Virus record (IMG/VR): IMGVR_UViG_2619619126_000011
DNA from: a virus
Taxonomy: Duplodnaviria > Heunggongvirae > Uroviricota > Caudoviricetes
Direction: 5' to 3' (one strand)
Length of the DNA stretch: 16,729 nucleotides
Part shown: positions 6,199-8,985 of the stretch, piece by piece
Position numbering within the stretch: position 1 is the stretch's first letter
How the letters are laid out: each line of letters begins with the position of its first letter
Translations under genes and position numbers: made by a program
The notes under the pieces: generated by a model
Database searches by the model: none
Told to the model about the DNA's origin: nothing
Seen by the model: only the letters and a program-made list of their open reading frames with translations

Positions 6199-6945
6199 TT
6201 ACTTCTCAATTCCTGGCTGACCAACATTCGGGCGCCAGCTCTCCCAGTTAAAATTCACCCATCGCCCGCCGTTCATGGTCATCCGATCCATAATCCTCTC
6301 GCCGAGCAATGTTTTCATGGCCTCATAGTTCAGGTTTGTCAGCATCCCCACGCTGCGGATCGACGCTGTCCGGCGATCAACAATCTGGTGCAGTACCACC
6401 TGCTCGTTTTTTGTCTCGCGCTGAATGCCAATTTCATCAAGAACCAGCAGATCCACTTCGCACAGTTCCCGCAAAAATTTTTCGCCTGATTGCCCGTCGT
6501 CATAGCTGGCGTGTAGAGCACTCATAACATCAGCCACGGTAACCACAATCACTGTCTGACCGTTTTTCAGCAGGCGATTCCCGATAGCCGCCGCCAGATG
6601 GTTTTTTCCGGTACCAGGTTTTCCGCTAAACGCAAAATTTGTACACCCGACCATCAGTTCATCGGCGATGGATTTCGCCTGGCTCAACGCGTATCGCTGG
6701 CCGTCGTTCTGCACCTGGTAATTCGAAAACGAGCATTTGCGGTGCAACGGCTGGATGCCGGAGCGATTCAGAATTTTTTCCACCCGCAACTGACGATTCT
6801 GGCGATTGATCTCCTCGCAACGTTTCTGGCCTTCTGCAAGTTGCCACTCGCGCCACTCCGCCACCGTCCTGAATGGCGCGGTTACATGTGGCGGGGCCAG
6901 TCTGCGGATACGTTCCAGAACGCCGCCTGTCGCAATATTTTTCAT
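6199..6945 (-). CDS. ydaV: DnaC/IstB-like AAA+ helicase loader (Rac YdaV), 248 aa
   Basis: Walker A GKPGTGKNHLAAAIG and Walker B-like DLLVLDEIG. Length and position match K-12 Rac ydaV. GGGGG RBS upstream of ATG 6945. Confidence 0.9.
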   Translation of the reverse strand: MKNIATGGVLERIRRLAPPHVTAPFRTVAEWREWQLAEGQKRCEEINRQNRQLRVEKILNRSGIQPLHRKCSFSNYQVQNDGQRYALSQAKSIADELMVGCTNFAFSGKPGTGKNHLAAAIGNRLLKNGQTVIVVTVADVMSALHASYDDGQSGEKFLRELCEVDLLVLDEIGIQRETKNEQVVLHQIVDRRTASIRSVGMLTNLNYEAMKTLLGERIMDRMTMNGGRWVNFNWESWRPNVGQPGIEK

Positions 6946-7348
6946 GGTCAGTTACCCCCTGAAGCCTGGCGGGATCGCACTGTCCGGAAACGAGACAGTG
7001 TTAACCTGTCGGAGCAACGTCTCAGGCCGAACACTTTTCGGCGCGAACAAGCCCTGGTATTCATTGGCGATGCTGTGTCGAATCACCTGCTCAGGGGTAA
7101 AACCCTGCTGGCGGAATTTTTCCAGTTCCCGTATCGCCCCGTTAGCGCCCTGCTCCGTTCGAATCGGTTTTCGCAATGCCTGCCTGAACTGGACCCACTC
7201 ATTCCAGAGTGTTTCTGGCAACCAGTCGGGCAGAGCAATGGCCTCCGGCTCGAATTGTTTAGACGCTCGTTTTTGCCGAGGGGGATTTAGGGGGAGATCA
7301 GTATTTATATCTTCCTCTTCCTCTGGTAACGCTTTTTGATCCGTTTGT

Positions 7349-7367
7349 GTAACGCTGGCAGCGTTAC
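7349..7367. repeat. 19-bp palindrome GTAACGCTGGCAGCGTTAC (copy 1 of 3)
   Basis: Seen directly; lies inside the ydaU coding region. Confidence 0.8.
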
Positions 7368-7556
7368 CTTTTCGCTTCAGTTCGCGTATTTTTGTAACTC
7401 TCTCGTTTGTAACCGCCCGTTTTTTTCGAGCTTTTTCCGTTATGACGCTCAAAGTTTGGTAGTGAAAGCACTCCATCACTTTCGACCAGCCATCCAACCT
7501 GAATTAACGCATCAGCAAAACCAGCCATAAAAGTGATACGGTCTATTGCACTTTTT

Positions 7557-7575
7557 GTAACGCCTCGAGCGTTAC
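7557..7575. repeat. 19-bp palindrome GTAACGCCTCGAGCGTTAC (copy 2 of 3)
   Basis: Seen directly; lies inside the ydaU coding region. A half-site GCGTTACC follows at 7580-7587. Confidence 0.8.
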
Positions 7576-7748
7576 ACTCTGCGTTACCGTCTATCATTTG
7601 TTGATCCGCCCATGCCCAGAAGCGAATGACTTTCCCTAATGCGGCATCTGGATCAATATTCAGAATCTCAGCAAGCCTGAATATTTCCGGCTTATCCGGC
7701 GTAATAACTTCGAGCTTTATCCAGTTTGAAGCCATTTGTTTTCACCTT

Positions 7749-7767
7749 GTAACGCTCGCAGCGTTAC
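7749..7767. repeat. 19-bp palindrome GTAACGCTCGCAGCGTTAC (copy 3 of 3), immediately upstream of the ydaU RBS
   Basis: Seen directly; lies between the ydaT stop (7813) and the ydaU start (7735). Confidence 0.8.
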
Positions 7768-7812
7768 ATTTAACTGATACCGAACAAAACAGTTCGGTAC
7801 GATTAATTTCAA

Positions 7813-8235
7813 TCAATGCACTACGACAGAATCGCTAGGAGAACCGCCGCCGCTGAAATGTGCTTTACGGTAAACGGCCTGGACTGCATCATCATGCGCA
7901 TCAATTGCCGTACTCAGTGCATCCTGTGCCGCCAGTAATGCACGGCGTTCCAGGGTATCGAAGATGCAGAGTCGGTGACGCAGCTCGCGAGGAAGAATTG
8001 CCAGAACCGCAGGGATCAGTTTCTGAATTTTTTCCCTTTGCGCATTCGTTTCACCTTTCAACCAACGATGATAGATATTCTGCTGATTGTTCCAGTCCTT
8101 GCCTGGTACCAGGGGCAATTCGCCGCCCCCCTGGTGCAGATATTCTTCAGTAATTGCGTTAGCGACCCACGCCTGCCCTTTTTCGGCTGCCAGGGCTAAC
8201 AACACTGATTCGATGTGCTCATGCTTGATTTTCAT
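7813..8235 (-). CDS. ydaT: YdaT (cII-like prophage regulator/toxin), 140 aa
   Basis: MKIKHEHIESVLLALAAEKGQAWVANAITEEY..., with length and position as in K-12 Rac. Its start overlaps the upstream gene stop as ATGA. Confidence 0.85.
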   Translation of the reverse strand: MKIKHEHIESVLLALAAEKGQAWVANAITEEYLHQGGGELPLVPGKDWNNQQNIYHRWLKGETNAQREKIQKLIPAVLAILPRELRHRLCIFDTLERRALLAAQDALSTAIDAHDDAVQAVYRKAHFSGGGSPSDSVVVH

Positions 8236-8486
8236 GAATCAACTCCCATCAGCTTTTTCGTAGTAGTTTTATTTCTGCCAATAGTTAAAATTGCATCGGC
8301 AGAAAATAATCCGTTTGATGCATGAGCGATTTTTTCAGCGTAATATGTTTCGCCGGTATATTCTGTGCGAGGCAATTTTCCGTTATCCATCCATTTGTAG
8401 ATTGCTCTTTGGCTGACACCACAAACGTCGGCCACAACAGAAACGCGAACAGTTTTGATTACATCTTCAAGTGTTTTCTGGTTCAT
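8232..8486 (-). CDS. ydaS: Cro-like HTH regulator (positional YdaS equivalent), 84 aa from ATG 8486
   Basis: Divergent from racR and translationally coupled to ydaT. HTH segment VCGVSQRAIYKWMDNGKLP. Start 8486 has a GAGG RBS and leaves a 79-bp operator region; the ORF-track start at 8558 would leave only 7 bp. The gene symbol is positional; the length differs from what I recall for K-12 YdaS. Confidence 0.65.
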   Translation of the reverse strand: MNQKTLEDVIKTVRVSVVADVCGVSQRAIYKWMDNGKLPRTEYTGETYYAEKIAHASNGLFSADAILTIGRNKTTTKKLMGVDS

Positions 8487-8565
8487 ATCATCCTCACAAT
8501 GTGAACTTTGAGTACATGCTATAACAGAACTGACAGTACATTCAAGAGCGAATATCATTGAACTT
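8487..8565. promoter_or_regulatory. Divergent cro/racR control region with repeated AGTACAT motifs (OR-like)
   Basis: AGTACAT at 8511-8517 and 8535-8541, 24 bp apart, between the divergent start codons. Promoter elements not resolved. Confidence 0.35.
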
Positions 8566-8985
8566 ATGGTTCATGAAGATAAAGCGCGTAAAGAGTTCGC
8601 CAGTAGGCTTGCGCTAGCCTGTGAAAACGCTGGTTATGAACAACATGGAAGGCAGGCAGAAATTGCCCGTCGAATGAAATTAACACCAAAAGCGGTTAGC
8701 AAATGGTTTAATGGTGAAACAATTCCTCGCCGAGAGAAATTAAGGGAATTAGCAACACTCATTGGAACAACACCAACCTATCTTTTGGGAGAGGATACAG
8801 AAGAAAGTGGACAGATACGTTTCTATCAGGAGTTAAATCCAAGACAAAAAATCATCATTGACCTTCTGGACGAGCTCCCTGACAGTGAGACAGATGAACT
8901 TTTAAAAACTCTTGAGGAGAAAAAACAGAAGTACAATGCAATTTACGAAGAGTTAGCACGAAAGAAAAAACAAAAAGCCTCTTAA
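8566..8985 (+). CDS. racR: RacR prophage repressor (HTH, no recognisable S24 peptidase domain), 139 aa
   Basis: MVHEDKARKEFASRLALACENAGYEQHGRQAEIARRMKLTPKAVSKWFNGETIP has an HTH. It sits divergent from the cro/ydaT operon as in K-12 Rac. An in-frame stop at 8509-8511 forbids a longer N-terminus. Confidence 0.8.
   Translation: MVHEDKARKEFASRLALACENAGYEQHGRQAEIARRMKLTPKAVSKWFNGETIPRREKLRELATLIGTTPTYLLGEDTEESGQIRFYQELNPRQKIIIDLLDELPDSETDELLKTLEEKKQKYNAIYEELARKKKQKAS

Follow-up and report, generated by a model that had tools for sequence, protein, structure and literature searches.

What are three near-identical palindromes doing in and just upstream of a single phage gene, and which protein reads them? 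The question is raised by a 16,729-nucleotide stretch of Caudoviricetes DNA (IMG/VR record IMGVR_UViG_2619619126_000011; hereafter, the window), in which an initial annotation described three 19-bp palindromes around a gene called ydaU. It proposed that they are either initiator-binding sites marking a prophage origin or operators for a regulator such as YdaT or the Cro-like protein, with looping as a further possibility. The description itself is accurate. A search with GTAACGCNNNNNGCGTTAC, allowing up to two mismatches on both strands of the window, returned exactly three matches, all without a mismatch, placing the dyad GTAACGC-N5-GCGTTAC at 7349-7367 (site 1), 7557-7575 (site 2), and 7749-7767 (site 3). 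At that stringency there is no further copy outside 7326-7767, the cI-cro intergenic region included. The dyads differ solely in their central five bases (TGGCA, CTCGA, and TCGCA, respectively), are spaced 208 and 192 bp apart from start to start, and in two of the three cases extend to a 21-bp palindrome, TGTAACGC-N5-GCGTTACA.

Chance is a poor explanation for this arrangement: the dyad is expected 0.04 times per shuffle of the window, and none of 200 shuffles gave three copies. The GTAACGC heptamer is similarly concentrated, with 8 of the window's 10 copies falling within 7326-7767 (440 bp), whereas 1.37 would be expected for the whole window. Two of these are orphan half-sites beside the dyads, at 7326-7332 and 7581-7587.

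The gene in question (6952-7735, minus strand) encodes a replication initiator with a winged-helix N-terminal domain, a linker, and a DnaT-like C-terminal domain. Its ATG (7733-7735) and Shine-Dalgarno sequence AAGGTG (7743-7748) can be read from the minus strand (7733-7748 together), and its translation begins MASNWIKLE, in agreement with the family consensus. In the window it is a pseudogene. The coding sequence is split over two frames (open reading frames 7364-7735 and 6952-7497), and alignment to the intact gene of strain AHB29 places a +1 frameshift in a T7 run at 7420-7426 (A7 on the gene strand); residues 1-106, the N-terminal domain, are intact. Intact relatives have A6 at this run, other contigs carry separate A7 and A8 frameshift alleles, and PGAP labels a 99.9%-identical copy of the gene "frameshifted." Because of this lesion, the element in the window is a relic, with an origin that probably needs the protein in trans to be active. 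Seven base pairs downstream lies a gene annotated ydaV in relatives (6199-6945, minus strand), whose product is a DnaC/IstB-like helicase-loader ATPase matching the Pfam families IstB_IS21 (E=1e-19) and, for the ATPase domain, Bac_DnaA (E=2e-8).

The placement of the sites given in the initial annotation stands; its view of the gene needs correcting. Two copies are indeed intragenic, site 1 at gene position 369-387, in the linker that joins the two domains, and site 2 at gene position 161-179, within the winged-helix coding region. Site 3 falls within the 77 bp that separate ydaT from the initiator gene; counted from the ATG it covers -32 to -14, and it abuts the Shine-Dalgarno sequence (it ends one base before it); its center differs between strains while its arms are constant. 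However, besides being frameshifted, the gene is not the K-12-type ydaU, and the name "ydaU" is misleading. K-12 YdaU matches DUF1376 (PF07120, E=2.7e-26), the window-type protein does not, and alignment of the family profile to the K-12 YdaU N-terminal domain with hhalign gave a probability of 0.1%, that is, no detectable homology. Despite this, the intact homologue is listed at NCBI as "phage replication initiator YdaU family protein"; the PHROG annotation is "replication initiation protein."

As to its domains, neither the intact 262-aa protein nor either open reading frame of the window matches any Pfam family at E≤0.01, and so no lambda O family model either. Pfam and NCBIfam scans assign the N-terminal domain to no family and match the DnaT tail weakly, and a PDB sequence search with the N-terminal profile returned nothing relevant. 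The predicted fold of this domain is a helix-turn-helix followed by a beta-hairpin wing, as expected of a winged helix. The C-terminal 115 aa of the window match the single-stranded DNA-binding domain of DnaT (2ru8_A, E=8e-5; 9zbt_D, E=3e-4), and relatives match the DnaT-like family PF17948 at E=1e-11 to 1e-18, with the window type below the Pfam reporting level.

When the truncated open reading frame of the window is used as a query, nearly all of the protein matches are truncated or near-identical. We therefore used a profile built from phage homologues, which detects a family of >3,000 proteins. Its members come from prophages and from phages, temperate as well as virulent, of Enterobacterales, Xanthomonas, Ralstonia, Pseudomonas, Vibrio, and Planctomycetota. 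We took 167 distinct N-terminal proteins found in viral contigs and looked for a recurrent perfect 5-N9-5 palindrome in the interval from -150 to +520 of the gene; 112 have one there, as against 0 of 167 in the control region. The arms fall into three site classes, GTAAC (78 genes), GTCCG (23), and GTCAC (10), with AAATT in one further gene. Each class is restricted to its own protein subgroup; site class follows protein subgroup. The GTAACGC dyad recurs at the same two gene positions in homologues from Klebsiella, Escherichia, Xanthomonas, Ralstonia, and Pseudomonas phages, while the 19-bp dyads of Vibrio phage 1.211.B and of SPN1S and BUCT711 read GTCAC-N9-GTGAC and GTCCGC-N7-GCGGAC, respectively.

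The layout is also conserved. Homologous genes carry two intragenic clusters at equivalent positions, each a 19-bp dyad with half-sites at steps of about 11 bp, and this holds for genes of E. coli, Klebsiella, Xanthomonas, Ralstonia, Pseudomonas, Vibrio, and Planctomycetota. The dyad of what we call cluster A lies at gene position 149-161, and that of cluster B at about 347-392. On average a gene has 2.9-3.9 orphan half-sites, whereas controls have 0.2-0.25 even when every kind of half-site is counted, and the offsets of the orphans peak family-wide at -12, -24 and +11, +23, +33. The observation that the spacing is unlike that of tandem iterons was thus correct: the dispersed layout (192-208 bp in the window, 195-290 bp in relatives) is a family trait, and each copy centers an array of one dyad and one to three half-sites. 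The distances between clusters A and B (195-243 bp, but also 279 or 288 bp) share no common phase, and we therefore rejected helical phasing or looping as a defining feature. A full site upstream of the gene is found in 28 of the 78 distinct GTAAC-class genes, all in the Rac-like subgroup, and in none of the other classes.

In the window, site 2 is the core of cluster A, and its orphan half-site (7581-7587, minus strand) lies 12 bp from the same-orientation half of the dyad. Judging by the sequence, a 12-bp duplication seems to have created this half-site and added four residues to a protein loop; DGNAECNARGVTK in the window subgroup stands in place of the DGNAGSVTK of other members. Site 1 is the core of cluster B, which spans gene position 369-411. 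Measured to the half of site 1 that points the same way, the orphan half-site at 7326-7332 (plus strand) is 23 bp away, and it is the last before a polypurine tract. Two degenerate half-sites reduced to GTAAC, at 7394-7398 and 7409-7413 (both plus strand), are of uncertain membership; the former is on the upstream side of cluster B along the gene, the latter near the cluster. The half-site pattern "<<><<" occurs in 9 distinct genes. Directly after the last half-site comes the polypurine tract and then a short AT-rich stretch (7296-7325, minus strand; cagaggaagaggaagatataaatactgatc on the gene strand), a candidate DNA-unwinding region. Such a tract follows cluster B in all site classes and in every homologue displayed: across 111 distinct genes, the 30 nt after the cluster average 87% purine, compared with 55% in a control segment 200 nt further on.

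It is important to establish that selection acts here on the DNA and not just on the encoded peptide, which at site 2 is C-N-A-R-G-V-T. The synonymous codons at this site are GGT, AAC, and GTT in 89 of 89 genes each, whereas elsewhere in the same genes the use of GGT is 18% and that of GTT 27%; the fixation holds in 17 of 17 genes with GC3 above 0.7. At site B the reading frame differs by lineage, the frame in Klebsiella phi3.2 and ZX5 being unlike that in the window. The genome-wide search, in turn, upheld the specificity of the motif. In 185,579 species genomes (596 Gb), the paired motif occurs at 25 loci, every one of them within a homologue and at the positions expected; of 187 single sites in viral contigs, 168 fall within the gene region of the family. 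The sites exist, are non-random, are under DNA-level selection, and are specific to this initiator family.

The initiator is also the only protein constant across these loci. Its upstream neighbor may be ydaT, a metallophosphoesterase, KilAC, a methylase, or Rha, and its downstream neighbor is DnaC-like or DUF1064. A plasmid search for an independent replicon gave two records only, both of them phage-like circles. In CP2, the initiator lies 1-2 kb from a divergent-transcription switch, and therefore GC skew cannot separate replication from transcription there.

Taken as a whole, the dyads are a conserved signature of a widespread, apparently undescribed initiator-gene family whose members probably carry their own binding sites inside the gene, and therefore the replication origin most likely lies inside the gene as well. 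We consider it probable that the palindromes are initiator-binding arrays forming a lambda-like origin within the initiator gene, with site 3 serving autoregulation. From sequence we infer the identity of the binder (the initiator), the firing of the region as an origin, and the role of each cluster.

Four other explanations have to be weighed, and a natural swap bears most directly on the regulators named in the initial annotation. That the dyads are operators of the YdaT/CII-like protein, the Cro-like YdaS homologue, or a CI-like repressor might be suggested by their location, adjoining ydaT and with one copy in the ydaT-initiator spacer. However, E. coli 6883, which carries the K-12-type initiator cassette, lacks the motif, although its ydaT-to-cI region is 98% identical to that of the window, intergenic operator region and YdaT box included. 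The swapped segment, from about 7300 to 7815, contains all three dyads; the sites are co-inherited with the N-terminal domain and not with the immunity genes, and they are retained in phages with unrelated immunity regions. The YdaT box, determined experimentally by footprinting, is the inverted repeat (A/T)TGATT-N6-AATCAA (PMC11879457). It differs from the dyads in sequence and geometry, and a perfect copy lies apart from them at 8225-8242. The dyads were likewise rejected as CI/Cro immunity operators, since none lies in the cI-cro intergenic region and 6883 lacks them. We regard this as the least credible of the explanations, and the repressor-side regulators YdaT and Cro/CI are excluded as binders. 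Of the roles first proposed for the sites, it is the initiator-site option that is favored by the co-variation with the N-terminal domain, the cross-phylum conservation of the DNA, and the polypurine/AT-rich tract, as far as sequence can tell.

A purely regulatory role for binding by the initiator, or by a truncated form of it, would leave the true origin elsewhere and make the intragenic and pre-RBS sites roadblocks for autoregulation of the initiator and of the early genes downstream. The position of site 3 against the Shine-Dalgarno sequence and that of cluster A early in the gene both suit a roadblock. In many relatives, moreover, the gene lacks its own promoter and shows translational coupling to the upstream gene, so that a roadblock would be the only way to autoregulate it. 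In the window, a promoter scan found no sigma-70-like site near site 3 on either strand; this also fits a roadblock, and it led us to drop the idea of an operator overlapping a promoter. Against this, the polypurine/AT-rich tract invariably follows cluster B in the domain linker, an arrangement known from lambda ori, and the K-12-type cassette has repeats of its own at the same junction; most family members lack the upstream site, and head-to-head arrays of half-sites exceed what a roadblock needs. We think a regulatory role alone unlikely.

RNA hairpins in the early mRNA, acting on stability, processing, or translational control, have some points in their favor: every copy could fold into a 7-bp stem closed by a 5-nt loop, arm complementarity is kept in the three site classes, and a terminator scan did flag site 1 on the plus strand. 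That strand, however, is antisense to the gene, and we rejected the terminator-like call as a by-product of the palindrome. The orphan half-sites have no partner at hairpin distance and yet are enriched 10-20 times, at multiples of 11 bp and in defined orientations; the imperfect copies listed (e.g., CGTTAG opposite GTAACG) are not G-U-compatible; and within each class the arms are invariant in sequence across Pseudomonadota and Planctomycetota, beyond mere complementarity. Hairpins are thus highly improbable. More improbable still is some other DNA transaction traveling with the module, such as a recombination or module-exchange hot spot, a packaging or partition site, or a restriction/modification target. 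Cassette boundaries do lie close to the sites and DNA methylase genes stand beside the initiator in several relatives, but no protein apart from the initiator recurs at every locus, ParAB or terminase genes are not adjacent, and site class tracks the initiator subgroup, not the neighboring genes.

Returning to initiator-binding arrays within an origin, the following course of events can be proposed. The winged-helix N-terminal domain would bind palindromes within its own gene, one dimer per full 19-bp dyad, and the flanking half-sites, about one helical turn apart and pointing at the dyad, may extend the complex into a head-to-head array. Cluster B in the domain linker, together with the polypurine/AT-rich tract, would be the most likely replication origin, organized like lambda ori. 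After melting, the DnaT-like C-terminal domain and the DnaC-like YdaV would recruit the host DnaB helicase. Cluster A, about 208 bp upstream in the coding region of the DNA-binding domain, may be a conserved second part of the origin complex. At site 3, in the Rac-like subgroup only, the initiator probably limits its own expression at the ribosome-binding site. A mutual-information search for specificity residues has to be read with care: its top column is the Asn/His codon, itself within a half-site, and the remaining columns are confounded by phylogeny, so that we draw no recognition residues from it.

How does this compare with systems already known? In lambda ori, the repeats lie inside gene O as four tandem iterons of about 19 bp, each of them dyad-symmetric. 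The main cluster falls where the N/C-domain linker is encoded, a purine-biased AT-rich tract and the helicase-loader gene follow, and the origin specificity of lambdoid phages swaps with the N-terminal half as a cassette. By analogy, the window and its family look much the same: the sites are inside the initiator gene (sites 1 and 2 here; 112 of 167 distinct homologues by a strict criterion), cluster B in the linker is followed by a purine-biased AT-rich tract, the sites swap with the N-terminal half, and ydaV comes next. Unlike lambda, the family has no block of four or more tandem iterons at spacings of about 20-24 bp. It has two intragenic clusters about 200-290 bp apart, with a third site upstream in the Rac-like group, and each cluster consists of a single full dyad from which half-sites run outward in steps of about 11 bp. 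In addition, the N-terminal domain of the window protein is unmatched to lambda O and the C-terminal domain is DnaT-like.

The K-12 Rac prophage is the closest comparison at the locus level. It shares the order ydaT, initiator, ydaV, and about 90% or more DNA identity over the C-terminal half and ydaV, being near-identical from about 7300 leftwards through ydaV. The K-12-type cassette also carries its own repeat family, TTGAACATCTG (five direct copies and one inverted), at the equivalent place in its initiator gene, ending at an AT-rich junction that is common to both cassette types and at which homology between them resumes. Unlike the window, it has repeats of another sequence, mostly direct, its initiator gene starts 12 bp after ydaT with no upstream site, and its N-terminal domain is DUF1376. 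An active origin, oriJ, has been reported for Rac (PMC3945230); the oriJ plasmid paper is that of Potrykus et al. (2000), as cited in PMC11014345. The literature we consulted on YdaU, oriJ, the epsilon15 group, and the motif, with limited coverage of oriJ, holds no description of the origin proposed here.

Similarly, the initiator resembles the E. coli DnaT-DnaC pair of the replication-restart primosome, in which dnaT is followed by dnaC: its C-terminal domain matches that of DnaT, and a DnaC-like gene comes next. DnaT acts after PriA/PriB at stalled forks and, to our knowledge, has no sequence-specific origin-binding domain, whereas in this family the winged-helix domain would direct such a DnaT-like module to one fixed origin. 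Initiator sites in head-to-head arrays are known from the left and right DnaA arrays of E. coli oriC and from the site II pentanucleotides of SV40. The half-sites of this family may be viewed as comparable opposed arrays converging on a dyad, which would suit two oppositely oriented assemblies. The proteins are unrelated, however, as the family initiator is neither an AAA+ DnaA nor a helicase, and its arrays, at 2-5 half-sites, are short and occur twice, about 200 bp from each other.

It is tempting to go one step further and propose a widespread, so far undescribed class of origin, in which a winged-helix/DnaT-fusion initiator reads dyad-centered, helically stepped half-site arrays twice in its own gene, and its DnaT-like domain assembles a PriA-independent primosome on the adjacent polypurine strand. 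One of the arrays would lie among the loop codons of the domain that reads it, so that the site would dictate the conserved peptide G-N-A-x-x-V-T, and a change of site class would alter the encoded residue, from AAC (Asn) to CAC (His). We put this forward tentatively, and rate its prospects as slightly below even.

If the overall reading is true, it would provide a sequence-level definition of the origin and a recognition code for the initiator, in three 19-bp classes, for a family of more than 3,000 detected proteins. It would also open three questions to testing: how a DnaT-like module loads DnaB when the origin is fixed, why that origin is divided among clusters separated by about 200 bp, and how a cis-element embedded in coding sequence constrains the protein that binds it. 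In practice, the paired motif can be used to mark this replication module specifically, given that every match in the species genomes lay within the gene family. Finally, the three site classes allow a prediction of which phages and prophages could cross-activate the replication of others or interfere with it.

Searching both strands of the window with up to two mismatches allowed returned exactly three matches to GTAACGC-N5-GCGTTAC, at 7349-7367 (site 1), 7557-7575 (site 2), and 7749-7767 (site 3). All are perfect and differ from one another solely in the central five bases. The initial annotation had listed these three copies, alike except at their centers and with no full copy elsewhere in the window, and it was right on each point; the observation lies far beyond chance, since 0.04 dyads are expected and none of 200 shuffles gave three. 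Two of the three extend to a 21-bp palindrome, TGTAACGC-N5-GCGTTACA. Of the ten GTAACGC heptamers in the window, eight are clustered in 7326-7767, two of them as orphan half-sites (7326-7332 and 7581-7587).

The window is a Rac-like prophage of Escherichia coli, and its 6900-8600 segment is 99.9% identical to strain 300033, where neighboring genes are annotated as sieB, kilR, recE, recT, xisR, and intR. The minus strand carries a cro-like HTH gene (8232-8558), ydaT (7813-8235), the replication-initiator gene (6952-7735), and the DnaC-like ydaV (6199-6945); a cI-like gene lies on the plus strand (8566-8985). At the left end, homology to a near-identical strain identifies an IS4-like IS421 transposase gene (164-1282) and a Hok/Gef toxin gene (1354-1566), a finding that suggests replacement or truncation of the prophage's late region.

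The initiator gene had been named ydaU, but it is not of the K-12 type. Its product matches PHROG 2509 “replication initiation protein” (E=3e-89) and no family in a Pfam scan; K-12 YdaU matches DUF1376, and a profile comparison of the two N-terminal domains gave a probability of 0.1%, which rules that identity out. The C-terminal domain (window 6952-7299) resembles the C-terminal ssDNA-binding domain of E. coli DnaT (PDB 2ru8, 9zbt), and in relatives of the initiator it matches PF17948; a DnaT-like domain followed by a DnaC-like gene recalls the E. coli dnaT-dnaC pair. SPN1S, BUCT711, and Klebsiella phi3.2 have no DnaC-like gene, and a DUF1064 gene follows the initiator instead.

In the window, the gene is split between two frames (ORFs 7364-7735 and 6952-7497). 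Aligned with the intact 262-aa gene of strain AHB29, it has a base too many in a homopolymer (T7 at 7420-7426) and has lost 6 bp in frame; PGAP labels a near-identical copy “frameshifted.” On the gene strand the run is A7 here and A6 in intact genes, and because different frameshift alleles of it occur in other viral contigs (TA7, TA8, and GA7, with ORFs of 113-123 aa), it looks like a recurrent slippage hot spot. The window product is 123 aa, the DNA-binding domain alone, and its TAA stop falls within site 1. With the initiator truncated in this way, the putative origin in the window should be silent unless complemented in trans.

The sites are conserved in related phages. Initiators were located by tblastn in bona fide phages, gene starts were set at a fixed position, and palindromes were then sought. 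Klebsiella phi3.2, Escherichia ZX5, and TL-2011b carry GTAACGC-N5-GCGTTAC at gene positions 149 and 358, and Xanthomonas CP2 at 149; Ralstonia QkW1 and Pseudomonas VW-6S have a GTAACGC dyad or one-mismatch copy at ~150, with more copies or half-sites at ~345-395. Vibrio phage 1.211.B has GTCAC-N9-GTGAC at ~150 and 358, and SPN1S and BUCT711, which have diverged further, show GTCCGC-N7-GCGGAC at 66 and at 345 or 354. Sites of all three classes measure 19 bp, start with GT, and end with AC. The genes flanking the initiator vary from phage to phage, and it is the only protein always present. Four scans of IMG/VR added 318 loci. Of 167 distinct N-terminal sequences, 112 have, from -150 to +520 relative to the gene start, a perfect 5-N9-5 palindrome that recurs; an equally large control region gives 0/167. 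Their arms are GTAAC (78), GTCCG (23), GTCAC (10), and AAATT in one gene, where the match is regarded as coincidental. Hexamer half-sites average 6.5 per gene region versus 0.26 in the control.

Frequent occurrence genome-wide, which the initial annotation had said would refute its reading, is not what the motif shows. Two perfect dyads 176-206 bp apart occur at 25 loci in 185,579 species-representative genomes (Enterobacterales, Comamonas, Polaromonas, a Pseudomonas relative, Thiodiazotropha, five Planctomycetota, and one Oscillospiraceae MAG), every time inside a homologue of the initiator N-terminal domain. The pair sits at 149-161 and 347-392 of the gene in 24 of them; three sites, at 218, 410, and 434, are present in the Oscillospiraceae locus (34% identity). 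Among the matches listed for the first 120 stretches of a single-dyad scan of viral contigs, 168 of 187 sites fall in an initiator-family gene region. Planctomycetota genomes have the same GTAACGC dyad pair in homologous genes, with two copies on one Stieleria magnilauensis chromosome (NZ_CP036432.1), and this host range is unusually wide for an identical 14-base recognition sequence. The initiator is also coded amid phage genes (CII, NinB, Rha) on two non-mobilizable plasmid records of 41 and 52 kb, Pusillimonas sp. T7-7 plasmid NC_015459.1 and E. coli pE16EC1016-8, which may be phage-plasmids or circular phage genomes replicating from the initiator module.

Each full dyad is the center of a small half-site array: site 2 of cluster A, within the N-terminal domain codons, and site 1 of cluster B, in the linker. 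Genes of the GTAACG class have 2.9 orphan half-sites on average, and those of the GTCCGC class 3.85, compared with 0.25 and 0.19 for control half-sites of any kind. The orphans lie upstream at -12 and -24 in forward orientation and downstream at +11, +23, and +33 in reverse, >><< and ><< being the commonest cluster-B patterns. Spacing by single helical turns, with the orientations opposed, suits proteins stacked on one side of the DNA and argues against a role of the palindromes as RNA hairpins. The A-B distance is 195-243 bp, or else 279 or 288 bp, without helical phasing. The last half-site of cluster B is followed immediately by a polypurine tract with a short AT-rich end (window 7296-7325); over the 30 nt after the cluster, purines average 87% versus 55% in the control. 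Tract length differs among strains by whole GAGGAA units (two in the window, three in AHB29), altering the count of Glu-Glu pairs in the linker.

The codons themselves indicate that the palindromes are selected as DNA and are no by-product of a protein motif. Cluster A codes for G-N-A-x-x-V-T, and its GGT, AAC, and GTT are each fixed in 89/89 distinct genes bearing the motif, and in 17/17 genes with GC3 >0.7; elsewhere in the same genes they make up 18%, 72%, and 27% of codons for the respective amino acids. In the Vibrio class, CAC (His) replaces AAC (Asn), exactly the half-site change. Cluster B reads G-N-A-A-S-V-T in the window type and, in another frame, K-V-T-L-A-A-L-Q in phi3.2 and ZX5, and SPN1S-type genes have cluster A at a different gene location.

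The initial annotation had also offered the sites as operators for YdaT or the Cro-like protein, the regulators coded alongside. In effect, nature has performed a swap in E. coli strain 6883, which has a K-12-type initiator cassette. From ydaT to cI it shares 98% identity with the window, the cI-cro intergenic region and YdaT box being identical, and it has no copy of GTAACGC-N5-GCGTTAC; the two diverge only over ~7300-7815, the segment holding all three palindromes and their half-sites. YdaT moreover has its own site, (A/T)TGATT-N6-AATCAA, footprinted across the ydaT start codon in K-12 Rac and CP-933P (PMC11879457), and a perfect box, TTGATT-TTCATG-AATCAA, spans the ydaT start at window 8225-8242. 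The swap and this distinct box rule the operators out. YdaT-box matches at ≤2 mismatches number four in the window against 1.9 expected, not above chance; one two-mismatch copy (7799-7816) lies just 3' of the ydaT stop, adjoining a hairpin.

That hairpin, TACCGAAC-N6-GTTCGGTA (perfect 8-bp stem, 7778-7799), occupies the ydaT-initiator spacer, 10 bp from site 3. Because two A-to-G changes in the AHB29 arms (gene strand) keep pairing only as G-U in sense RNA, they point to an element of the mRNA (for processing or stability, or a weak terminator) and not to a DNA site. The spacer is 77 bp in the Rac-like subgroup, against an initiator close behind ydaT elsewhere, and only this subgroup (28 of 78 distinct GTAAC-class genes) has the upstream third dyad.

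In the K-12-type cassette, repeats of a different family, TTGAACATCTG (five direct, one inverted), occupy the corresponding part of the gene and end at the same shared AT-rich junction. The TTGAACATCTG(C/T) repeats lie within 1952-2267 of the K-12 Rac ydaU locus (L003) and 1452-1767 of a second compared locus (L004), four copies being packed into 70 bp just ahead of the junction as the gene reads. Rac is reported to have an origin, oriJ (PMC3945230), and these repeats are candidate oriJ iterons.

Initiator-binding sites marking a prophage origin, the other suggestion made initially, are well supported by comparative evidence (conservation, co-variation, and specificity). We think it reasonably probable that the dyads are both initiator-binding sites and origin, and hold to binding sites alone with greater confidence. 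Winged-helix domain dimers would bind the dyads, with further subunits along the half-sites; cluster B and its tract would be the likely melting site, and cluster A a conserved second anchoring point. The DnaT-like domain and DnaC-like YdaV would load DnaB. Site 3, placed just upstream of the RBS as first described, abuts the Shine-Dalgarno sequence; because a promoter scan found no promoter-like site nearby, it is probably an autoregulatory roadblock.

The lambda ori lies within gene O as repeats with an adjoining tract, an arrangement that cluster B and its tract resemble. Lambdoid phages are a classical case of an origin that lies within the initiator gene and changes specificity along with the N-terminal domain. 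Our literature search found no paper describing the origin of this initiator family. What appears to be new is the joining of a DnaT-like domain to a winged-helix domain that has no Pfam model, the split, dyad-centered array architecture of the putative origin, the three site classes, and the placement of one array among the codons for the very domain presumed to read it.
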